Under the pieces are notes generated by a model that saw nothing but the letters and a program-made list of their open reading frames with translations, was not told where the DNA came from and made no database searches. Below are positions 2,812 through 25,310 of a stretch of 25,310 nt of DNA, in pieces; the first letter of the stretch is position 1; each line of letters opens with the position of its first letter. The position numbers and the translations under genes were made by a program. This stretch comes from a virus (lineage: Duplodnaviria > Caudoviricetes): IMG/VR virus record IMGVR_UViG_3300032092_000220, positions 1 through 25,310 of that record. The stretch is one strand, 5' to 3'.

Positions 2812-3119
2812 ACGCACAACAGCGCGAAGACTGGCTCGAAGAGTTCGAGGCATGGCGGACGCTTCCGATGACGGAGGCGTTCTTTCGATCGCTCAAGACC
2901 GAGCAGACGGAAATACAGGCGGACTGGACCCGCGCGGTTTGGGAGTCGGAATCCGATCCACCGCTGGACCAGCTACGCCAACTGAGGATTCAGGCGCGAA
3001 CGCTTGAAGACGTGATCAACAGAAAGGGAACAGATGTCCTTGCATCACTCTACCCTGACCTACGAGGCATTGCCGAAGGTCAGCGAGACCAATCCGGGGA
3101 TGAAGCCCCTGGAATTTAA
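2808..3119 (+). CDS. Small helical hypothetical phage head-module protein
   Basis: Coupled to the upstream stop (ATGA). The EEFEAWRTLPMTEAFF pattern resembles small genes found just before GroES/scaffold genes in podoviruses. Confidence 0.7.
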   Translation: MNAQQREDWLEEFEAWRTLPMTEAFFRSLKTEQTEIQADWTRAVWESESDPPLDQLRQLRIQARTLEDVINRKGTDVLASLYPDLRGIAEGQRDQSGDEAPGI

Positions 3120-3429
3120 CGTGCTAGTCCTGCCGCGTGTCGTGCAGAGGCAGCGGGCTTCGGGGATATTCGTTCCCGAGAACGCGGCCCAGCGCGAGGA
3201 CGAGGGCGGGGATGAGGGCCTGCTGGTGGCAATCTCGCCGCTGGCCTTCAACGAAGAGGACTTTCCGAACCCCGACGCCATCCCGAAGGTGGGCGAGCAT
3301 GTGATGTTTGCGCGCTATGCGGGCAAGTCGTTCGTCGGCGCTGACGGTCGCGTCTATCGGGTGATGAAGGACAAGGAGATTGTCGGCATCAGGACGGCGG
3401 CTGCGACCAGTGCGCAGGTGGCGGCATGA
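3034..3429 (+). CDS. groES: GroES/Cpn10-like co-chaperonin
   Basis: MKPLEFNVLV, mobile loop ASGIFVP, GLLVAI, KVGEHVMFARYAG and YRVMKDKEIVGI. A purine-rich SD (AAAGGGAA) precedes 3034; an alternative ATG lies at 3100. Confidence 0.88.
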   Translation: MSLHHSTLTYEALPKVSETNPGMKPLEFNVLVLPRVVQRQRASGIFVPENAAQREDEGGDEGLLVAISPLAFNEEDFPNPDAIPKVGEHVMFARYAGKSFVGADGRVYRVMKDKEIVGIRTAAATSAQVAA

Positions 3430-10076: not shown

Positions 10077-11536
10077 GCACGTTCCGGGCGTTCCAGACAG
10101 GGCTTCAGGCTGGCCAGCAACAGGCCAAGATGCGGCGCGAGGATGATGCGCGTCGCAAGGCGTCCGAAGCCTTTGGCATGGGCAATTTCGAGGGCGCGGT
10201 CACCGGCCTGATGGGCGCGGGCCTGACGGATGAGGCGAGCAGCTATTCGACGCTTGGCCAGCAGCAGGAAGCGCGCAACCGCACGAGGGCCTATGGCGAG
10301 GCGTTCAGGACCGGCATGGGCACAGGCCCGCAGCCCGATCGCAGGGGCGCCTATCAGGCTGTGGCGACCACGGCAGGCCAGCAGGGCGACTTCGGCATGA
10401 TGGCCGACATGGATCAGGTCTTGTCGCAGATGGACGAGAGCCAAGCCTCGCAATTCGCCAGCGGGATGGAGTTCCTTGGCAATACCGCGCTGGGCCTCAA
10501 GGGCGTGCCGCCTGAACAGCGCGGCGCGGCGGCTGTGGAAATCCTCAAAAACTCGCCCTACGGCAACCCGCAGATCATGGCGCAGATCGAGCAGGCCGCG
10601 GCGGATGGCCGGATCACCGATCAGGAGCTGGACAACTTCGCCATGCAGACGATGAGCGTGGCTGAGCGGGTGAAGGCTCAACAGCCGAAGCTGTTCAACA
10701 CAGGGCAGGCGGTTGTCTCTGTGAGCCCCGGAACCGATCCCAAGGCAGAGGTGCTTTACACTGACCCGCAGAAGGCTGGCGGCGGGGTGCGTCAGCCACC
10801 GAGCGGGTACACATGGACCGAAGAGGGCGCCCTTGCGCCTATTCCGGGCGGGCCTGCCGATACCAAGCGGAGCGGCGTGGACGTTGACCCGAAAATCATC
10901 GCGCTGGAGATGACGCAGTCCAGCAAGTGGATGCCGATCCAGAACAACTTTCAGGACATTCAGGCTTCATTCAATCGCATCAATACTCTTGCAGGGAACA
11001 AAAACTCCGCAAGCGATCTTGGCCTCATCGTCTCATTCACGAAGATGCTTGACCCTGGCTCTGTGGCTCGCGAGGGCGAAGTCGCGCTCACACAGTCGGC
11101 GGCAAGCGCGCTTGATCAAGCTGCAATGTGGGCGCCTCGCCTTGCTGGCGGCAAGACGCTTCTGCCTGACAATGTCCGCAAGATGTACGTGGACGCGGCG
11201 CGCGACATGTACGGGGCATACGAGAAAACTTACCAGCGCCTTGCCCGGGACACGCAGAAGCGCGCGACCGAATACGGCCTGAGCCCTGATCGGATCATGC
11301 TGGGCTACGAAGCCAAAGAGCCTGTCCAGTCCAAGACTGTCCAGACGCCAGCCATGCAGATGGGCATCCGCGCCTATTCCAAGCAGACGGGCATCCCGGC
11401 TGAAGCGATCAGCGAGTTCCTGTCCAACCCCGCAACGCCGCAGGAAATCGCTGAGTTCAACCAGGCGTTGGAAGAGGCGGGCTTTGGCCCCAATCAAGCC
11501 GAAGCTCTTTTGAAGGCGCTGCAAGGTGGTCGCTAA
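10073..11536 (+). CDS. Putative DNA ejection protein (P22 gp20-like position)
   Basis: A/Q/G-rich, with PPSGY...LAPIPGGPAD and SDLGLIVSFTKMLDPGSVAREGE motifs of the kind seen in phage internal virion proteins. Confidence 0.68.
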   Translation: MSTFRAFQTGLQAGQQQAKMRREDDARRKASEAFGMGNFEGAVTGLMGAGLTDEASSYSTLGQQQEARNRTRAYGEAFRTGMGTGPQPDRRGAYQAVATTAGQQGDFGMMADMDQVLSQMDESQASQFASGMEFLGNTALGLKGVPPEQRGAAAVEILKNSPYGNPQIMAQIEQAAADGRITDQELDNFAMQTMSVAERVKAQQPKLFNTGQAVVSVSPGTDPKAEVLYTDPQKAGGGVRQPPSGYTWTEEGALAPIPGGPADTKRSGVDVDPKIIALEMTQSSKWMPIQNNFQDIQASFNRINTLAGNKNSASDLGLIVSFTKMLDPGSVAREGEVALTQSAASALDQAAMWAPRLAGGKTLLPDNVRKMYVDAARDMYGAYEKTYQRLARDTQKRATEYGLSPDRIMLGYEAKEPVQSKTVQTPAMQMGIRAYSKQTGIPAEAISEFLSNPATPQEIAEFNQALEEAGFGPNQAEALLKALQGGR

Positions 11537-14500
11537 CAAGTACGCCAAGTACGTCCAGCCGACGCCTGCGCCGCAACCGGAGCAGCAACCGGCCCCAGCG
11601 TCACAGAACAAGTACCGCAAGTATTTGCAGCCCGTGCCGGAGCCCGCTGCGCCTTCCGCCAATGCGGCTAACCCCATCGTCACAGCCCAGCGCCAAAGCC
11701 AGACGCAGGCAATGTCTCAATGGGCGGCGCAGCAGGAAGCGCGCAAGGCGGCTGAGGCGGCCGATGCCGCCCGCCGTCAGCAGGAGCGTCGTGAGGCGTC
11801 CCGCGTCAACATGGGCGACTTCATCGTTGATGAAAACGCAGCGCCTATCCAGACGGACTATGAAAAGGACATCGGCAAGGGCGTGGCTGGCGCTCCGCTG
11901 TCATTCGGACAGGGGCTTGCCGAGGGTGGCGCGAACCTCATCAACAATGTCACGAACATCGGCGCGGAGGGCCTTAACGCGGCCAACCGGCTTCTGCTTG
12001 GCGACAAGGCTTACCAGTTCACGGGAACCAATATCGAGGTTCCGCGCAACGTCCTGATCGGTGAAGGCGCTCCGCTTGAATCCGTCACTGGAGCCCTTCC
12101 GCGCGGCGTTGGCCAGATGATGGCTGTACGTATGCCGCTTGGCAAACTGAAGCCGGGTGGTGGATTGCCGGGCATGGCGATCAAGGATGCGGCAGCGTTC
12201 GCAGCGACGACAGACAAGGATACCCCGCGTCTTGTCGATATGCTGCCGGCCGGAACGCCCATCGCCAGCGCGCTGCAAAGCCGTGATGGCGAGGGCTATA
12301 CCGAGGCGTTCCTGAAAAACGCGGCTGAAGACCTGACTATGTCAGGCGCTTCGGCTGGCGTCATGAAGCTTGTCGAAACGGCTCTTGGCGCGGGCGGGCA
12401 GGCGGGCAGGCAGGCAGCAAGGGCGCCGGAACCTGAGCCGACCCCGGCCCCCGCTCCGCAAGCACCTGCACCCACGGTGCAGCCCTTCAGCGCCCCGGCT
12501 GAACCTTCGGGCGGCAGCTTCATACGCAATTTTGGAACCCGCGCCATTGGCGGCGGCATCGGGGCCACGCTGGGAGGCGTGGGAGACGCAATCGCAGCCG
12601 AGGGCGACGGATCGCGCGGCGGGCCTGATATCATTAACCCGGTGACCGGAGCGGCTGCCGGCATATTCGGGCCGAGTGTTGTCGCACGTGGCTTGCGTGT
12701 CGCTGCACGCCCGTTCCGTCCCGCTGGCTTTGATGAGCGTGTCGCAGCGCGTGCCGTGCGCAAAGCGCTGCTTTCGGGCGGTATCAAATCAGAACAAGAC
12801 GCGCTCAATGCAGCCCGCGCCAGGTTTGGCGACAAGCCGGCGTCTGTGGCCGATCTGACGCAGGAAGGCGTCGGGATCAGCGCGGGTATTTCGCGCCTGC
12901 CCGGAGCGACGGGAGACGTTGCGCGTGCCCGCAGCGAAGACCTGATCAGCAACCGGGCTGGCCGTCTTGAGCGCGATATTGGCGAGGCAACCGGAGCCAA
13001 CCCGGCCACTATTTCCGGTGACGTGGACCGCATGATTGCGCTTGCTCAAGAGCAGGCTACGCCGGCTTACGATGCTTTGCGTGCGCAGTATCCCTTTGGC
13101 AGCCTGACCAGCCCCCGGCTCAAGGAATTGCGCGAGCTGGATATTCTGAAGCCGCACATCAAAGGCGTTGAACGTTATCAGGACACGCTGGCGAAAACAG
13201 AGAATCGTGTCGTTGGCGACTTCGAGTTCTGGGATCTGGTCAAACGCAGCCTTGACGACACTGAGCAGGCTGCAATCGCTCGCAATCAACCCGTGCCGTA
13301 TGACCTCGACAGCGCGCGGCAGGCGATTGTCAAAGAGATGGACGCGCGCGTGCCTGGGTATGCTGAAGCGCGCCAGCTTGGCGGTGAGGCACCCAAGATG
13401 CAGGCCGCGTTCCGGCAGGGGCAGGGGCTTCTTGGCGGTCGCTACACCGCTGAGGATGTGTCGCGGCTAGTTCAGGCCGTCACTGGTCAGCCGCTGACTG
13501 CGCTGCAAGCAGGCGTCATTCGGTCGATGGTTGGAAAGACCGAAGGAGCCGGGGCGGCTATTGCGGCTCTTTCCAGCGCGGGAGCGCAGAGGAAGTTAGA
13601 AAAGGTTTTTGGGAAGGGTCCTGCCGAGGCCATGCGGGCGCGCTTCAAAGCTGATGCAGCGCTTGTGCAGAACGCTTCGCGCATCAATCCGAACGTCGGA
13701 TCGGTCACATCTCAGGCAGAGATGAGCCAAGGCGGCATTCTGCCAGCAGCGGCTGATCTCATGCGCACGGTGCGCAGCCCTGTTGAAAGCGCGCTTGCGG
13801 CCATGTCGCGGTCGGGCAGTTACACCAAAGCCCAGCGGGACCTGATGGGCGAAATGCTTCTAGGCGGTGCTGATCCTGACAACCTTGCGCGCATCTTCGC
13901 CGGCAAGAAGCCCAAAGGTGGTGGCCGGGCTTCGCCGTCGCCCGTGCCGTCCACCGGCCTCGGAACCGTTTCATCTGCGCCTCGCAGACCAGAGCAGTCG
14001 GGCTTCGGAGGCGGTCGCAAGCTTCCTATGGATGAAGCGTCACGGATGTCTCGTGCTAGAGAGATGGGATTCGATGTCGATACGCCGCTGTATCATGGGA
14101 CGAACAAGAATATCGAAGAGTTTGCCGTTGGCGCAAATCGCGATGGAGCAAGCGGTTCGCGGGAGGGCCCTCTCGGTGTTTGGCTGACCAACTCGCCAGA
14201 CACGGCGTCAAGCTTTGCCGATTGGGCTGGTCGCGGTCAGGGCGGCGAGAACGTCATGCCGGTATTCGCTCGCCTCAAAAATCCTCTCGTGGTTGATAGC
14301 TACGCAGCAGTCAAAGACGTCATCGACAAATATACCAAATTCGAGCGCCCCGGCTATGAGATTGGTGGGCGTCAGATTAGAATGGTTGGCGACAAACCGG
14401 ACTATGCTGCAGCACGCAAAGCCATGGAAGCGGAAGGCTACGACGGCATCATCATTCGCAACACGATGACGGACAGCGTTGACGGCAACCCCATCGATCA

Positions 14501-15119
14501 GGTGCTCGTCTTCGACCCCGCCAACATCCGAGGCAAGTTCGCCAAGTTCGACCCCTCCGAATCCTCAAGCTCCAAGCTCCTTGCTGGAACAGGAGCCAAC
14601 GCCACCGGCCTAGGCGGTGCAGGCGGTGCAGTTGCGGGCGCAGCCTATGGCGAGTTCGGTCCACTTCAGGACATGGATCGCGACGGAGATACGGACGCAG
14701 AAGACCGGCAGGCCATGCGGATGAGCTATGGCTTCGGCGGCCTTGTCGGCGGCGGTCTTGCAGGAGCCGGAGCGAACAGGCTGCTAGGCCCGCGTCGTGG
14801 TGTGTCGAAGGCCGGGCCGCAGAAGCCCCCCGCTCAGGCCCCGCAGGCAAAAGCAGCGCCTGCCGTCGATCCAAACGACCCGTTTGGCGACAAGGCATGG
14901 CTGGCTCAGAAAAAGATGGGCGCAGGAAAAGCGCCAGTTGTTGAGCCTGTCGATACTTCAACATGGGTGCCGGAAGATTTTCAGGCAGCACGCACGCAGC
15001 TTGGCCAGCTTCTCAGGGAGCGCAGAACCGCGCCGCCGGATCAATGGCTGGACTACGACACCGAGATTGCACAGTTGAAGCAGGCGCTGGAGCAGGACGC
15101 CGCCAAGCCCAAGCGCTAA
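11526..15119 (+). CDS. Large ejection protein (gp16-like position) with an ADP-ribosyltransferase-like (ART-PolyVal-type) domain
   Basis: 1197 aa, Ala/Gly-rich. The segment at ~14028-14580 has RAREMGF, LYHGT, GVWLT, NVMPVFARLKNPL, GYDGIII and VFDPANIRGKFAKFDP. Confidence 0.78.
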   Translation: MVANKYAKYVQPTPAPQPEQQPAPASQNKYRKYLQPVPEPAAPSANAANPIVTAQRQSQTQAMSQWAAQQEARKAAEAADAARRQQERREASRVNMGDFIVDENAAPIQTDYEKDIGKGVAGAPLSFGQGLAEGGANLINNVTNIGAEGLNAANRLLLGDKAYQFTGTNIEVPRNVLIGEGAPLESVTGALPRGVGQMMAVRMPLGKLKPGGGLPGMAIKDAAAFAATTDKDTPRLVDMLPAGTPIASALQSRDGEGYTEAFLKNAAEDLTMSGASAGVMKLVETALGAGGQAGRQAARAPEPEPTPAPAPQAPAPTVQPFSAPAEPSGGSFIRNFGTRAIGGGIGATLGGVGDAIAAEGDGSRGGPDIINPVTGAAAGIFGPSVVARGLRVAARPFRPAGFDERVAARAVRKALLSGGIKSEQDALNAARARFGDKPASVADLTQEGVGISAGISRLPGATGDVARARSEDLISNRAGRLERDIGEATGANPATISGDVDRMIALAQEQATPAYDALRAQYPFGSLTSPRLKELRELDILKPHIKGVERYQDTLAKTENRVVGDFEFWDLVKRSLDDTEQAAIARNQPVPYDLDSARQAIVKEMDARVPGYAEARQLGGEAPKMQAAFRQGQGLLGGRYTAEDVSRLVQAVTGQPLTALQAGVIRSMVGKTEGAGAAIAALSSAGAQRKLEKVFGKGPAEAMRARFKADAALVQNASRINPNVGSVTSQAEMSQGGILPAAADLMRTVRSPVESALAAMSRSGSYTKAQRDLMGEMLLGGADPDNLARIFAGKKPKGGGRASPSPVPSTGLGTVSSAPRRPEQSGFGGGRKLPMDEASRMSRAREMGFDVDTPLYHGTNKNIEEFAVGANRDGASGSREGPLGVWLTNSPDTASSFADWAGRGQGGENVMPVFARLKNPLVVDSYAAVKDVIDKYTKFERPGYEIGGRQIRMVGDKPDYAAARKAMEAEGYDGIIIRNTMTDSVDGNPIDQVLVFDPANIRGKFAKFDPSESSSSKLLAGTGANATGLGGAGGAVAGAAYGEFGPLQDMDRDGDTDAEDRQAMRMSYGFGGLVGGGLAGAGANRLLGPRRGVSKAGPQKPPAQAPQAKAAPAVDPNDPFGDKAWLAQKKMGAGKAPVVEPVDTSTWVPEDFQAARTQLGQLLRERRTAPPDQWLDYDTEIAQLKQALEQDAAKPKR

Positions 15120-20281: not shown

Positions 20282-20998
20282 ATGCCTGCTTTTGCAGAGG
20301 ACGGCACGGTGACGTGCCCGTTCCCGGCCGCGTGGCTGGAGTTCTACAACGCCGACAAGGACAAGTGGACGGCGGTGGCCTACAGGACCGAAGAGTGTGG
20401 CGGTGGACGCGAGTTCTCACACGGCACGGTCGTCGCGGCTTTGCCGGACGGATCATTCCCGCCCGTCTTCCTGTGGGACAAGATCAATTATCGCGTGGTG
20501 GCCAAGGGCGCTGACGGGTCAGTGCTGGCGACGATTGAGCGCGTGGAACCGGGCTCGGAGTTTGTGGCCGAAGGCGCCGCGCCTGAGCCTGAGCCTGTAA
20601 GGCCGCAGCCTGTCGCGCCTGACCTGACGGCGGAACTTGCTGCCGAGGTCGAAGCCCTGCGCGCAGAGAATGCCGAGCTGAGGCGCGCAATGGCGGCTGT
20701 GGAAGAACCCCCGCCGCTGCTGCCTGAGCCTGACGCGCTGATGGCTGACTATGGCCCCGTAGGCGAGGAGGCCGACATCACGGGCGACATGCTGCTCGAT
20801 GCCTTCGAGGTGGACCCCACCGAAACGGCTGCCGTGGTCAGGACGCTGTCGGCCACGCGCCTGAAGCATCTGAGCGAACAGTTGAACGTCGAGCGCGCCC
20901 GGCTGGATCGGGAGCACCAGGCAACGGGCATCGCCAATCCGAGGTCCGCATCGATCGACCGTCTGCTGGGGCTGCTGACGCGACGCGGGGAAGTCTAA
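20282..20998 (+). CDS. Protein with a tailspike-like N-terminal domain and a short coiled coil
   Basis: SD GAGGA. The N-terminal ~90 aa resemble the N-terminus of 17850..19673, followed by a PEPEP linker and LAAEVEALRAENAELRR. Confidence 0.7.
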   Translation: MPAFAEDGTVTCPFPAAWLEFYNADKDKWTAVAYRTEECGGGREFSHGTVVAALPDGSFPPVFLWDKINYRVVAKGADGSVLATIERVEPGSEFVAEGAAPEPEPVRPQPVAPDLTAELAAEVEALRAENAELRRAMAAVEEPPPLLPEPDALMADYGPVGEEADITGDMLLDAFEVDPTETAAVVRTLSATRLKHLSEQLNVERARLDREHQATGIANPRSASIDRLLGLLTRRGEV

Positions 20999-21020: not shown

Positions 21021-21440
21021 ATGTCGGAACTATTGATCGCAGAGCACTTGGCGCAGTCGCGCAAGACTGCCGAGCACGAACAAATCAACCGCTTTGGTAC
21101 GCTTGAGAAACACCTTGCCGTTCTTCAGACGCGCTTTGAAGCGTGGGTGGAGCGCGCGGTTCAGGGTGAAGACCTCAAGGAGCTGAAGCGCGAAATGGAG
21201 TCGCAGATGAAAGACACTCTCGGAAGCCTGCAATCCTACGTCGTCACAGCAAACGATCAGCAGGCCAAAGATATTTTAGGTGAAGTGCGCAGCATGTTTG
21301 TCGCGCAAAAGAATGAACAAGTCGAAGACCAAAAGGCGTTTCGCCGGCAGATGTTTTTCATCGTCTTCTCGTCGGCGCTTGGCGTGATCTGCACGGTGCT
21401 GGGTGCGCTGGCAATCACCGGACTACTCGGGCGCGCGTAG
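21021..21440 (+). CDS. Coiled-coil protein with a C-terminal TM anchor (holin-like candidate)
   Basis: Helical charged body, then RRQ and about 25 hydrophobic residues at the C-terminus; first gene of the lysis-like cassette. Confidence 0.65.
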   Translation: MSELLIAEHLAQSRKTAEHEQINRFGTLEKHLAVLQTRFEAWVERAVQGEDLKELKREMESQMKDTLGSLQSYVVTANDQQAKDILGEVRSMFVAQKNEQVEDQKAFRRQMFFIVFSSALGVICTVLGALAITGLLGRA

Positions 21441-21461
21441 CGCAAGCAGAAAGGGCAGGGC

Positions 21462-22685
21462 ATGGGCCGCTTTTTGGATAAATTCTTAGAGTTCAAGAAT
21501 GAAGCCGACGCGACACGCAAGTTTGCGCTGTTCGCGGTGGTCATCATCACGCTTGGGCTTGCTTCGCTGTCCGTCACCGGCATCGTCGCAACGGCTCAGT
21601 GGACGTGGCTGAGCTTCCTGCCGATCATGGGCATGATCGTTGCTGTGCTCGGTGCGGAACTGCTCGCGACCGTCGCCTTTATCCGCATGCTCACCGCATC
21701 GACCACATGGCGGAAGGTGGCGGGCGCGTTCATCTTCGTTGGCCTTGCCGCTGTCGGCGTCCACAATGCGGAGAACGGGGCGAAGGTCGTCTGGCCGGAT
21801 CGCTTCGCGGAAAGCTCGGCCTCCCTCGCAGCCAAGGCTGCCCTTGCAGGCGAGGAAGCCGGGACGCTGGGCACAGCGCAGCAGGCGGCGATTCAGGGCA
21901 CCGGCGCAGAGCTGGAACGGGTCAGGACGCAGATAGCGGAACTGAAGACCGAACAGCAGATCATGGCCTCGATGTCCCCGGAGGGCATCTCCAAGGCGCA
22001 ATCGCTCCTCCTCGCCCAAGGGCTCTATTTCGGAAGCGTGGACGGCATCAGGCGAGACAAGACCGAAAGCGCGATGCGTGCGCGTGGTGAGGCGATCCAG
22101 GCCGAGCTTGCGACCCTCAAGGCGCGTGAGGACGGGCTGATGGCAGGGCAGGCGAGCCCCGTGCAGCAGGCGACGACTGATCGCAGGCTGTCAGAGATCG
22201 AACTGGCCGACAAAGCCTCACAAGCCTTCTGGGCATGGGTCTGGCTGATCTTCATGCTCTGCACGCTGGAAGCTGCCCGCTCGCTTAGCCTGTGGGCGTT
22301 GATTACTGATATCAGCGCAAACGATGCCAAGCGCGACCGGGAGCGCTCGGACGAGCTGGCCGAGCTGCGGCATCAGCAGGAAGTGGCGGCCATGCGTGCG
22401 GCGATGGCTACCGTAGCCGCTCCACAACCTGTTGAAAACACACCGCAATTAATCGACCCCCCAATTAGCGATAATCGAACCTCGATTCCGGAACCCGAGC
22501 CAGAGCCCGTACAGGAACCCCTGACGCTGGTTGATCCGCCAGAGCCGGAGATGACCCCGCAGCAGCGCAACGCGCGTCAGGGCGGGCTAGCCGCACAGCA
22601 TGAACGCCGGGCAGCAAAGACTGAGCGCCTGCTTGTGATTGGTCCTGTCTCAACCCTCGATCAAATGAAGGTTGCCGCAGAATGA
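21462..22685 (+). CDS. Four-TM membrane protein with coiled coil and a PG_binding_1-like domain
   Basis: Three N-terminal TMs, then a coiled coil interrupted by ISKAQSLLLAQGLYFGSVDGIRRDKTESAMR (~21981-22085), a fourth TM and a Pro/Glu-rich tail. Confidence 0.75.
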   Translation: MGRFLDKFLEFKNEADATRKFALFAVVIITLGLASLSVTGIVATAQWTWLSFLPIMGMIVAVLGAELLATVAFIRMLTASTTWRKVAGAFIFVGLAAVGVHNAENGAKVVWPDRFAESSASLAAKAALAGEEAGTLGTAQQAAIQGTGAELERVRTQIAELKTEQQIMASMSPEGISKAQSLLLAQGLYFGSVDGIRRDKTESAMRARGEAIQAELATLKAREDGLMAGQASPVQQATTDRRLSEIELADKASQAFWAWVWLIFMLCTLEAARSLSLWALITDISANDAKRDRERSDELAELRHQQEVAAMRAAMATVAAPQPVENTPQLIDPPISDNRTSIPEPEPEPVQEPLTLVDPPEPEMTPQQRNARQGGLAAQHERRAAKTERLLVIGPVSTLDQMKVAAE

Positions 22686-24223
22686 AAGTCCGTAAACTCG
22701 TAGGAATTGACCTCGGAAGTAGTAACAGCAGCGTATCGCACTGGACCCCCAGAGGGCCGGAAGTCATCAACGTGGACGGCTCGCCGCTCCTGCCCAGCGT
22801 CGTGACCATCGTCCCGGCTGATGCCGTGGCCAAGGGTGACAGCCAGATATTCGTCGGGTTGGACGGCATAGAAGCCGGCAAGCGCTATCGCGATTTCTGC
22901 TTCCGCCTGTTCAAGCGGCAACTGGCCGCTGCATGGCATGAGAACGAAGACACCGGCCACCAGACCGTCGAGGGCCGGGACGAGGAGACGAACGAGCCTA
23001 ACGGCGAGCTGCACTATCAGGGGCCAGACGGCTACACCTATTCACCGACCATGCTTTGCAGCGCGGTCATCTCAAAGCTGCTTGATGCCGCCACCATCAA
23101 GTTCAAAGGGGAGAGGCCAGACGCTGCGGTGATCTGCGTGCCTGCGACCTTCACCCATGACCAGCGCGCGGCCGTCGAAGAAGCCGGAAAGATGGCGGGC
23201 TTGAAGTACATCGAGCTGATGGACGAGCCGACCGCTGCGGCTGTCGCTTACGGCTATGATTTCAAAAAGGTGCGCCGCATTGCCGTTCTCGATGTCGGCG
23301 GCGGCACAACTGACGTGAGCATCATCCAGACCGGCGCAGGGCTCGTGACGGTATTGGGCACGGGCGGGTCCAGCATCACGGGCGGGTCTGACGTTGACGC
23401 CATGCTGGGCCGCTACATCGTCGGGGAGTGGGCCAAGTCCCACGAGGGCGTTGACCTCGCTGTGGACGATACGGCGATGACGCTGGTGCTTCAGGAATCG
23501 GAGGAGACGAAAAAGCGTCTTTCCCGGAAGCAGAAGACCGAGTTTCGGATCAAGGATTTCGATCGCACGCCGGGCGGGGAAGTCCTGCACATGGACCATG
23601 TGGTCGACCGTCCATTGCTGGAGCATCTCTCCAAGGAAATCCTCGCCCGAATGCGTCAGGCCTGCACCATCGCGATAGCCGAGGCGCAGCGCAAAGACCC
23701 CAAGTTCAGCGTGCGGGACCTCAATGACGTGGTGCTCGTCGGCGGCGGCACCCGGATGCCAGCCGTGCAAGCCCTTGCCGCGCAGGTCTTCGGGCAGGAG
23801 GCGAAAACAGACATTGACCCGGAGATTGCCGTTGTCCTTGGCGCCGCCATCAAGGCGGCAGTCATCGAGGGCCGGAAGTCTGACCTGACCGTGCAGGACA
23901 TCATCAGCTATTCGGTCGCCATCGAGGTCTATGACAAGGTGGAGGGCGTTGCCTCCGTCGTCATCCCCAAAGGCACGCCATATCCGAGCGAGAAGGAAGC
24001 GGCGTTTGTCCTGACGAACCGCGAGCCCGGCCAGACGGTCCTGCCCGTCCGCATCGTCACCGGAGACGAAAGCCGAGCGGCGCTGTGTGACCTGCTGCAC
24101 GCAATCGATGTGCCGCTTGAGCCGGGCGAGCCGCGTAGCGCGCGCGTGCCGTTCACGGTGGGGCTTAGCGACAGGGGCACTCCTTACGGGCGTGTTGGCG
24201 AAGTAGAGTGGGGCGAGGCGTGA
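22682..24223 (+). CDS. Hsp70/DnaK-family protein, divergent and C-terminally short
   Basis: VGIDLGSSNS, PSVV, AVICVPATF, DEPTAAAVAYG, DVGGGTTDVS, GGSDVD, VVLVGGGTRMPAVQ and AVVLGAAI, followed by a partial substrate-binding beta domain. Confidence 0.93.
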   Translation: MKVRKLVGIDLGSSNSSVSHWTPRGPEVINVDGSPLLPSVVTIVPADAVAKGDSQIFVGLDGIEAGKRYRDFCFRLFKRQLAAAWHENEDTGHQTVEGRDEETNEPNGELHYQGPDGYTYSPTMLCSAVISKLLDAATIKFKGERPDAAVICVPATFTHDQRAAVEEAGKMAGLKYIELMDEPTAAAVAYGYDFKKVRRIAVLDVGGGTTDVSIIQTGAGLVTVLGTGGSSITGGSDVDAMLGRYIVGEWAKSHEGVDLAVDDTAMTLVLQESEETKKRLSRKQKTEFRIKDFDRTPGGEVLHMDHVVDRPLLEHLSKEILARMRQACTIAIAEAQRKDPKFSVRDLNDVVLVGGGTRMPAVQALAAQVFGQEAKTDIDPEIAVVLGAAIKAAVIEGRKSDLTVQDIISYSVAIEVYDKVEGVASVVIPKGTPYPSEKEAAFVLTNREPGQTVLPVRIVTGDESRAALCDLLHAIDVPLEPGEPRSARVPFTVGLSDRGTPYGRVGEVEWGEA

Positions 24224-25310
24224 ACGATCATCTGTATGTCAACAATCACGGACTGCGGCTGATAACGCAGTTCGAGGGCGAACCGCGTCTCAAGGCCCGT
24301 CTGTGCGAAGGCGGCGCATGGGAGATGTCCTACGGGGTCACCTTCTATCCCGATGGCTCGCCGGTCAAAGAAGGCGATAGCTGCACCTATGACGAAGCGC
24401 TGGGCATGTTCCGCCATGCGCTTACCGTGTTCGAGGACCACGTCAAAAGGCTCGTGACGGTCCCGCTCAACTCGAACCAGTTCAGCGCACTCGTCAGCCT
24501 CTGCTACAATATCGGCCCCGACAATCTTGAGCGGTCGAGCGTGCTGCGCCACGTGAATGCGCGCCGCTTCGATGACGCCGCCGACGCGTTCGGGATGTGG
24601 CTTTATGCGACCCTCGGACAGCACAAGCAGGCGCTGCGGGGCTTGCTTCGCAGGCGCTATGCCGAAGCCGTCGTCTTCATGGGCTATGATTTCGAGGTCG
24701 CCTGCTCTGACGATGCCGTGGCTTTGGTCCGCGAGCGACCGCCCGGCGACATCGGGACCGACAAGGTGCTGTTCAAGACCCCGTTCCGCGACGTGCTCGT
24801 GGTGGCCCAGCGCTTTCCGCTCCCCGCCGATGACGAGCTTGTCCTCACTACTCCCGCTTCGCCGCGTGCCGCGGTTGAGGCGGCCCAGCGGCAGCAGCCT
24901 GACCCTGCCCGGTCCCCCGCCGCTGCCGCTGGCGCTGCCTCCCCCACTATTACCAAAACCGTCGCTGCGTCTCCGGCGACGGCCCCGGCGGCGAAGGCGG
25001 GCGTCCCTCCGTCTTCGCCGCCACCAGTTCCGGCTGTCATCACGCAGCCAGTCGGCACAAAGCCCAAGAGCCCGAACACGGTCGCGCCGGCCGAGGTGCC
25101 ATATCGCATCGACCCGCAAGCCGGATTAAAGCCGCTGGAGGAGAGCGACCGCGCCAAAGGGTACTGGTATCAGCAGGCCGGGATCGGGATGATCCGCCTC
25201 GGCTCGCTGGGCGTCTTCGGGACAACTGTGCAGGGCGGGGCGCAGGTGCTGCAAGGCGATCCGGTTCTCAGCAATCTTGTGCTCACGGGCGTCGTGGTCG
25301 GCGGCATCGC
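24220..25310 (+). CDS. GH24 (T4-like) lysozyme with Pro/Ala linker and hydrophobic C-terminal region; runs off the window
   Basis: Translated by hand from GTG 24220, which overlaps the Hsp70 TGA: GLRLITQFEG...YGVT...VPLNSNQFSALVSLCYNIG...SSVLRHVN...AADAFGMW...GLLRRRYAEAVVF. No stop occurs before the window end, so the ORF track misses it. Confidence 0.9.
   Translation, partial: MNDHLYVNNHGLRLITQFEGEPRLKARLCEGGAWEMSYGVTFYPDGSPVKEGDSCTYDEALGMFRHALTVFEDHVKRLVTVPLNSNQFSALVSLCYNIGPDNLERSSVLRHVNARRFDDAADAFGMWLYATLGQHKQALRGLLRRRYAEAVVFMGYDFEVACSDDAVALVRERPPGDIGTDKVLFKTPFRDVLVVAQRFPLPADDELVLTTPASPRAAVEAAQRQQPDPARSPAAAAGAASPTITKTVAASPATAPAAKAGVPPSSPPPVPAVITQPVGTKPKSPNTVAPAEVPYRIDPQAGLKPLEESDRAKGYWYQQAGIGMIRLGSLGVFGTTVQGGAQVLQGDPVLSNLVLTGVVVGGI

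Follow-up and report, generated by a model that had tools for sequence, protein, structure and literature searches.

A conserved but optional lidless Hsp70 beside a membrane protein in a phage lysis cassette

This report concerns an Hsp70 gene and its neighbours in the lysis region of a phage, at the end of a 25,310-nucleotide stretch (positions 1 to 25,310 of IMG/VR record IMGVR_UViG_3300032092_000220, Caudoviricetes) that we refer to as a whole as the window. Four co-directional open reading frames lie there on the + strand. They encode an anchor protein of 139 amino acids (aa; 21021-21440), a 407-aa protein with four transmembrane (TM) segments (21462-22685, here the 4-TM protein), an Hsp70 of 513 aa (22682-24223) and a GH24 endolysin (24220-25310, cut by the window end), the last three overlapping stop to start through ATGA at 22682-22685 and GTGA at 24220-24223. 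The original prediction had described this layout and had suggested that the genes may form one machine in which a wall-binding membrane protein recruits a dedicated Hsp70 to handle the lysozyme; the layout and the identities of the Hsp70 (Pfam HSP70, E 2e-82) and of the lysozyme (Phage_lysozyme, E 1e-30) are as it gave them. The four genes are the front part of the lysis cassette of a temperate podophage, a lifestyle that we consider likely because an integrase gene lies on the opposite strand directly beyond the lysis genes in relatives. In the lysis cassettes known so far, timing depends on membrane proteins and the proton gradient. The prediction noted that canonical cassettes contain no ATP-dependent chaperone; one does lie inside this cassette, and spanin-like genes follow beyond the window and thus out of its view. 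In the near-identical locus L002 the endolysin is followed by overlapping i-spanin-like and o-spanin-like genes and then by small 2-TM genes. In L002 and its relatives the spanin-like pair, a gene with an N-terminal TM that overlaps one with a lipobox, has a weak profile match only (phrog_1275, E 0.027), while the endolysin is clear at 106.7 bits to PF00959 and a match to phrog_7. The candidates for a holin are the anchor and a 65-81-aa 2-TM gene, neither of which has a family match.

The Hsp70 scores 277.6 bits against a Pfam cut-off of 20.6. It consists of an actin-like nucleotide-binding domain (NBD) and the beta part of the substrate-binding domain (SBD-beta), and the alpha-helical lid is absent since the protein stops after the beta domain, a feature that the original prediction had missed. 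A structure model (pLDDT 87) likewise has the NBD and SBD-beta (strands 403-510) with no lid and matches ATP-state DnaK (5NRO/7KZU) with a TM-score of 0.86. The phage short-Hsp70 clade to which it belongs spans 485-524 aa, compared to about 635 aa for ordinary DnaK, and a word-indexed search returned 70 proteins at 39-98% identity, mostly of about 500 aa, before reaching ordinary DnaK at about 33% and about 635 aa. In a quick tree with long branches flagged, 20 short Hsp70s group together, apart from 22 cellular ones (SH-aLRT 100). A scan of genome contigs with the Hsp70 alignment returned so much ordinary DnaK that it served for tree references only, and a search of 262 genomes with the SBD alone returned mostly host DnaK. 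A frameshifted or pseudogene DnaK was rejected on the conserved end point and a dN/dS of 0.135, and a recent capture of a host dnaK on the separate clade and the identity of about 33%.

E. coli DnaK numbering is used here, mapped through the motifs. The window protein keeps K78, E182, D204 and T209, and positions K70, E171, D194 and T199 are invariant in all 93 rows of the alignment, which is partly redundant. The catalytic residues of an ATPase are thus kept, and ATP-coupled peptide binding by the short Hsp70s is putative. Other positions have changed. R167 is lost in 93 of 93 rows, with Glu there in 80, and the pair formed with position 481 is reversed (167 acidic, 481 basic) in 66 of 93; in the window protein E178 and R498 stand in place of R167 and D481, and six of seven cellular reference Hsp70s have Asn at 481. 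The interdomain linker, LTVQ in the window, is polar at L392 in 92 of 93 rows and polar at the L390 position as well, and the arch position A429 is mostly Arg in the short clade. Since R167 contacts both an Asp of the J-domain (D35) and D481, as described in PMC13012618 and PMC4022485, the reversed pair would likely keep the coupling between domains yet repel J-domains. Searching five near-complete genomes with the J-domain profile PF00226 gave no match, where a control was detected in 12 of 14. With R167 lost, the linker polar and no J partner in those five genomes, the J-domain docking features of canonical DnaK are absent, and the score of the NCBIfam DnaK equivalog falls short at 276 against 648 bits.

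The 4-TM protein has three N-terminal TMs, a periplasmic coiled-coil hairpin, TM4, a cytoplasmic coil, a Pro-rich linker and a conserved tail. Its four hydrophobic segments fit the positive-inside rule, which would place residues 104-255 outside and 284-407 inside. The family comprises 168 clusters at 50% identity and may be a remote DUF4407-like one, given sub-threshold matches in 12 of 114 representatives, the best at 25.4 bits against a gathering score of 31.3. A structure model was of low confidence (pLDDT 60, pTM 0.30) with no fold match at E<=0.001, the ESM Atlas gave only unnamed viral clusters for this protein, and among GenBank phages there was no 4-TM match and the Hsp70 query gave only DnaK matches at about 30%. 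The description of this protein as peptidoglycan-binding survives in part. A partial PG_binding_1-like helix-loop-helix (residues 174-207; 21981-22082) lies at the tip of the periplasmic hairpin and is sub-threshold in the window protein (13.0 bits against 23, E 0.12, 34 of 57 positions); among the 114 representatives eight reach E<=0.005 and three exceed the cut-off. As a required part of the system wall binding does not stand, as L051, L052, L186, L247, L263 and L317 all have the Hsp70 and yet their 4-TM proteins lack the motif. It would appear to be weak, and dispensable for the Hsp70-linked cassettes.

Homologues of the 4-TM gene are also found in bacterial genomes. The 4-TM profiles match 13 of 262 genomes in the family of one Hyphomonadaceae metagenome-assembled genome and 6 of 401 sampled from its order. 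Three homologues (L249, L250 and L251 in G211, G222 and G208) are chromosomal, have a fuller PG-binding motif and lie beside purK with no phage genes in view; they may represent a phage gene that was domesticated, as has been reported for SpmX. On a 371-kb contig, one copy without the Hsp70 stands among housekeeping genes, as read by eye. Both Hsp70-bearing copies in these genomes (G247, G251) are on phage-like contigs of 57-59 kb, so the host assigned to them comes from binning alone.

The endolysin has the layout of SpmX and Enc34, with a catalytic domain (E19/C29/E35), a Pro-rich linker and a C-terminal TM; the full protein in L002 is 390 aa long with the same linker and C-terminal TM. Compared with the T4 lysozyme (T4L) triad E11/D20(C)/T26, E19 and C29 fit and Glu35 replaces Thr26. 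The D20C change keeps lysozyme activity according to 10.1101/418723, and T4L T26E is described in PMC5606550 as inactive and trapping its substrate. The Glu35 lysozyme may then be a retaining or a wall-trapping enzyme. Within 24220-24330 this Glu is accompanied by Arg at the position of Tyr18, and the variant is kept across distant phages. The C-terminal membrane tail comes in several interchangeable types that are independent of the catalytic domain (L002 10490-10711 compared to L012, L006 and L052).

Comparison of loci bears out the claim that these genes are a conserved unit. The 4-TM gene is upstream of the short Hsp70 in 30 of 30 examined loci (29 and L317, found later). In 15 close loci it precedes the Hsp70 in all, and the anchor and the lysozyme are present in 14 each, the misses being contig ends; searching from the 4-TM side, the Hsp70 is next in 25 of 26 loci and one is cut. 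This order persists over a range of 34-100% identity among the Hsp70s of the loci and is therefore not due to chance. The count of Hsp70 neighbours in viral data gives the same picture, with no random context seen. Among the best 80 viral Hsp70 matches (of an estimated 2700 or so pattern-matching stretches, in a scan that covered 15 of 64 parts of the data) 72 are full length, 6 cut and 2 short; both short ones are flanked by the 4-TM and lysozyme genes, the 4-TM gene is adjacent to none of the other 78, and R is present at 167 in 78 of the 80. In this set (L296-L375), viral contigs of 4-370 kb commonly carry a full-length DnaK gene.

The same comparison goes against the idea of an obligate machine. 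Related phages carry the same lysis genes with no Hsp70: in 16 phage-type loci of the 48 that we picked by hand, with duplicates and cut loci excluded, the anchor, 4-TM and lysozyme genes are present and the lysozyme directly follows the 4-TM gene. This is one of the outcomes that the original prediction had itself named as refuting it. The Hsp70 is therefore an optional part of the cassette, and a four-part machine in which each component is obligatory was rejected. Close pairs make the same point, as L052 and L273, which have the Hsp70, have 4-TM bodies 84% identical to that of L275, which has none, and all three carry the same lysozyme C-tail.

What does change with the Hsp70 is the cytoplasmic tail of the 4-TM protein (residues 363-407; 22548-22682). 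In proteins from Hsp70-bearing loci the chain ends shortly after a basic, GG-containing helix and a hydrophobic strand, which reads RLLVIGP in the window and KIPVxD-like in distant forms, with K/R-I-P-V-x-D in many tails. In 15 of 16 proteins from Hsp70-less loci it extends into a helical domain of about 60 aa that we take to be HTH- or SHOCT-like from its motifs. The libraries give this domain no name (best Pfam FeoC, E 0.17), and the ESM Atlas returned nothing. A profile of it scores 61-117 bits in those 15 of 16 and at most 2.2 bits in 29 of 29 Hsp70-bearing proteins; only the negatives are independent, since the profile was built from the 15 positives. L317 lay out of sample and fits the Hsp70-bearing pattern (tail KVPVSD, profile -7.8 bits). 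By tail type, 123 family representatives divide into 46 short-tail, 40 HTH and 37 other.

The tail type follows the Hsp70 type and not the 4-TM body. A tree was built from 37 of the 48 bodies, without 11 rows that were truncated or near-duplicates; on it the Hsp70-bearing state needs three changes, and L052 nests among the Hsp70-less L244 and L275. In the window's subfamily (16 loci) the identity of the tails rises with that of the Hsp70s (rho 0.82), while bodies compared with Hsp70s give 0.01; tails are 67-98% identical where the Hsp70s are at least 73% alike and 20-50% where these are at most 53% alike. The pair L074 and L075 has identical bodies, Hsp70s that are 39% identical and tails that are 42% identical. 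The tail core has a dN/dS of 0.117 (7 loci), near the 0.135 of the Hsp70, which is purifying selection. By these comparisons, tail and Hsp70 are exchanged between 4-TM bodies as one unit.

Fold prediction of the Hsp70 together with 4-TM residues 355-407 scored 0.72, compared to 0.00 for the best of three controls. Solved complexes reach this mark in 116 of 157 cases and mismatched pairs in 2 of 215; these counts are only rough when our own alignments are used. The runs agree in at least 70% of contacts, with partner pLDDT of at least 56. In the predicted complex L391-G394 (22632-22643) contact Hsp70 residues 416, 444-448 and 455, which form the substrate cleft, so that the tail motif is predicted to sit in the peptide groove. 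Recruitment of a dedicated Hsp70 by the membrane protein is then likely, by the covariation and by this prediction. That the 4-TM protein is a tether serving the lysozyme is not borne out, because the predicted contact fills the groove and the tail would behave as a client and not as a tether that frees the groove for lysozyme.

This bears directly on the model of the original prediction, which we now consider unlikely. Here the 4-TM protein would hold the Hsp70 at the membrane, and the Hsp70 would keep the signal-less, C-anchored endolysin unfolded or inactive and hand it over for export. The model addresses a gap, as PMC8943055 states that how an N-terminal catalytic domain crosses the membrane with only C-terminal TMs is unknown, and there is a precedent for an endolysin chaperone in Ms6 Gp1 (PMC6116114). 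The Hsp70 and lysozyme genes overlap, and the Glu35 variant is found in 12 of 26 parsed Hsp70-bearing loci, the most divergent among them, whereas all 16 Hsp70-less ones (partly read by eye) lack it. However, the endolysins of the 16 Hsp70-less loci have the same layout and in some cases a near-identical C-tail (L275 and L273; L244 and the window), insertions of about 0.7-0.8 kb split the Hsp70 from the lysozyme in three loci, and the groove is occupied by the 4-TM tail in the predicted complex. The Hsp70 is also paired with unlike lysozyme domains: the window and L071 have Hsp70s 81% identical and lysozyme N-termini 37% identical, and for the window and L067 the values are 52% and 74%. Lastly, the Hsp70 has neither a signal peptide nor a TM, which would put it on the cytoplasmic side, from which outward ratcheting is impossible. 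In ratchets the Hsp70 sits across the membrane and pulls from there. The comparison to a membrane-tethered ratchet was thus rejected for the wrong membrane side, with the predicted filling of the groove and the lack of a J-domain also against it, and a wall-bound machine of four obligate parts fails with it, the Hsp70 being optional and wall binding dispensable.

The explanation that we favor, and regard as somewhat more probable than its negation, is that a dedicated, J-independent Hsp70 clamps the 4-TM tail and controls the assembly of an envelope protein that helps to time or stage lysis. The cassette of anchor, 4-TM protein, endolysin and spanin-like genes comes in two forms, one with the HTH-like tail domain and one in which this domain is gone and an Hsp70 gene follows. 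With its tail motif in the groove, the 4-TM protein would be a dedicated client, as IscU is for HscA. Lacking a lid and a J partner, the grip would be weak and brief at high ATP and tighter in the ADP or empty state, so that late in infection the energy state of the cell would decide whether the Hsp70 holds 4-TM oligomers or lets them go. The ATP state would in this way likely control 4-TM assembly and tune lysis; the part of the 4-TM protein in lysis timing or endolysin staging is read from gene position alone. A bolder form, in which the clamp is an ATP-sensing lysis switch that gates the delivery or release of the signal-less, membrane-anchored endolysin, is tentative and we would not yet bet on it.

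Looking at the possible problems with this explanation, several points weigh against it. The complex score may reflect memory of DnaK-peptide structures; as these are well known and RLLVIG resembles NRLLLTG, it may show likeness and not binding. The controls were unrelated proteins and not other hydrophobic peptides. The lysozyme also tracks the Hsp70, with a rho of 0.56 over its first 46 aa and 0.79 over 150 aa, so linkage alone would account for much of the covariation, and the pairs of loci are not independent; the lysozyme does have clear discordant pairs, where the tail has none. In the Hsp70-less proteins, too, the helix-plus-strand element is found, just before the HTH-like domain, and it may therefore be a retained remnant. 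L254 has a short tail with no motif, no HTH-like domain and no Hsp70, and in L043 an insert of about 850 bases (1196-2040) separates the 4-TM gene from the Hsp70. The restriction of the Glu variant to Hsp70-bearing loci is the best hint of a link of the Hsp70 to the lysozyme instead. The strong linkage control could also speak for a general chaperone of late proteins or virion assembly with which the tail merely hitch-hikes, and such a role would suit a phage that also has a GroES-like gene (3034-3429) and the common occurrence of full-length DnaK in viral contigs (72 of 80 matches). We find it improbable, given the single fixed gene position in a clade whose members are as little as about 35% identical, the loss of lid and J-contact, which argues against general folding, the absence of the HTH-like domain from 29 of 29 proteins with the Hsp70, and the complex prediction, which passed.

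The 4-TM protein and Hsp70 could also be a real unit that acts outside lysis, in superinfection exclusion, envelope remodelling or countering host stress or defence, and is placed in the cassette for late expression. The chromosomal homologues beside purK in three genomes of the Hyphomonadaceae family have no lysis genes, spanin-like and small 2-TM holin-like genes are present in the phages anyway, and lysis proteins do not usually have an HTH-like domain in the cytoplasm. We nevertheless rate this as a poor prospect, because the endolysin is the next gene after the 4-TM gene in 16 of 16 Hsp70-less phage-type loci, PADLOC gave one weak 15-bit match only, which is uninformative, and a simple consensus scan found no promoter-like site on the + strand of the cassette. 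Terminator-like sites are rarer than expected by chance, and together with the missing promoter this suggests that the cassette is expressed as part of a late operon. A search of sequencing runs found 23 DNA runs and 1 RNA run, which is not evidence of expression.

Among known systems, DnaK shares the fold, about 33% identity, the ATPase residues and SBD-beta, and differs from the phage Hsp70 in its lid, R167, its apolar linker at L390 and L392, A429 (mostly Arg in the phage proteins), its separate clade and its J-domain partner, of which the five genomes hold none. In Ssq1 and HscA with IscU, an Hsp70 is specialized for a short motif of one neighbouring client (LPPVK; PMC9596805), as is proposed for the phage Hsp70, but HscA has a lid, its own J-protein and a soluble client, whereas the phage Hsp70 has neither of the former, a predicted membrane-protein client and viral gene neighbours. 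HscA models give it 232-236 bits against cut-offs of 620-709, and neither the isc context nor HscB was found. Ms6 Gp1, as described in PMC6116114, is similarly a non-essential chaperone gene inside a lysis cassette that is missing in many relatives; it binds the endolysin and is not an Hsp70, while the evidence here points to the membrane protein. The DnaK of large phages (moraphages, Lak; PMC12619734) is phage-encoded too, but is host-like, often with DnaJ and in jumbo genomes, unlike the gene fixed in the lysis cassette of 54-60-kb phages. SpmX and Enc34/M4Lys have the domain (GH24 in SpmX), Pro-rich linker, C-terminal TM and lack of a signal peptide in common with the window endolysin (10.1101/418723, PMC8943055), and no Hsp70 lies beside those enzymes as these papers describe them. 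The SpmX model matches the window endolysin at E 1e-16 with 60.9 bits against a cut-off of 700, the context is phage and not chromosomal, and the active site is E/L-R/x in SpmX compared to E/C/E here. Hsc70 on clathrin is like the proposed clamp in gripping a short motif on the flexible tail of an oligomer. Both Hsc70-clathrin and the Tim44/Sec63 ratchets need a J-domain recruiter and a lid, and the latter act on the far membrane side with the groove left for cargo.

The Hsp70/4-TM lysis module is real and conserved and apparently undescribed, as the open-access literature that we searched held no description of a lysis cassette with an ATPase chaperone or of this module; the component folds are old. 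If true, an ATP-sensing switch would be the first part of any phage lysis cassette to be driven by a nucleotide, and would open a route to how C-anchored lysozymes such as Enc34, M4Lys and SpmX reach the wall. Close relatives manage without the Hsp70, so it would likely add an ATP-dependent control step. The family supplies natural swaps, in which the same membrane protein has the HTH-like domain or the Hsp70 and identical bodies have different tail/Hsp70 pairs, and the specificity of the pair is therefore directly testable. For the study of Hsp70 itself, the phage protein is a natural experiment too: lidless, with a reversed R167/D481 pair and no J-protein, and under selection across deep divergence.

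The remaining features concern the surroundings. The anchor protein has a coiled coil and a C-terminal TM, a layout that we take to be holin- or XhlA-like, and is found with and without the Hsp70; the copies in the 14 close loci are 29-40% identical apart from two identical ones. Upstream of it, a 238-aa late gene (20282-20998, + strand) has about 90 conserved C-terminal aa just before the anchor gene (tblastn match in 14 of 15 loci). Its protein has no Pfam or PHROG match, and the gene is context that probably closes the tail module. The GroES-like and anchor proteins were compared pairwise, with no signal. Opposite-strand HNH-like genes are inserted between the Hsp70 and lysozyme or after the spanins (L005 2945-3511, L014 9524-10207, L002 11186-11800). 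The window as a whole is the late region of a podovirus-type phage, with a GroES-like gene, major capsid, SU10 adaptor, DNA-ejection protein, head closure and tail genes, and its relatives are 54-60 kb at an estimated completeness of 92-100%. The GroES-like gene (Pfam Cpn10, E 5e-10) is upstream of the capsid gene with no GroEL within the window, and is a second chaperone gene in a small phage. After the DNA-ejection genes, 11526-15119 encodes a 1197-aa protein that contains an ART-PolyVal ADP-ribosyltransferase domain (E 4e-16) and is probably a polyvalent protein that is injected.

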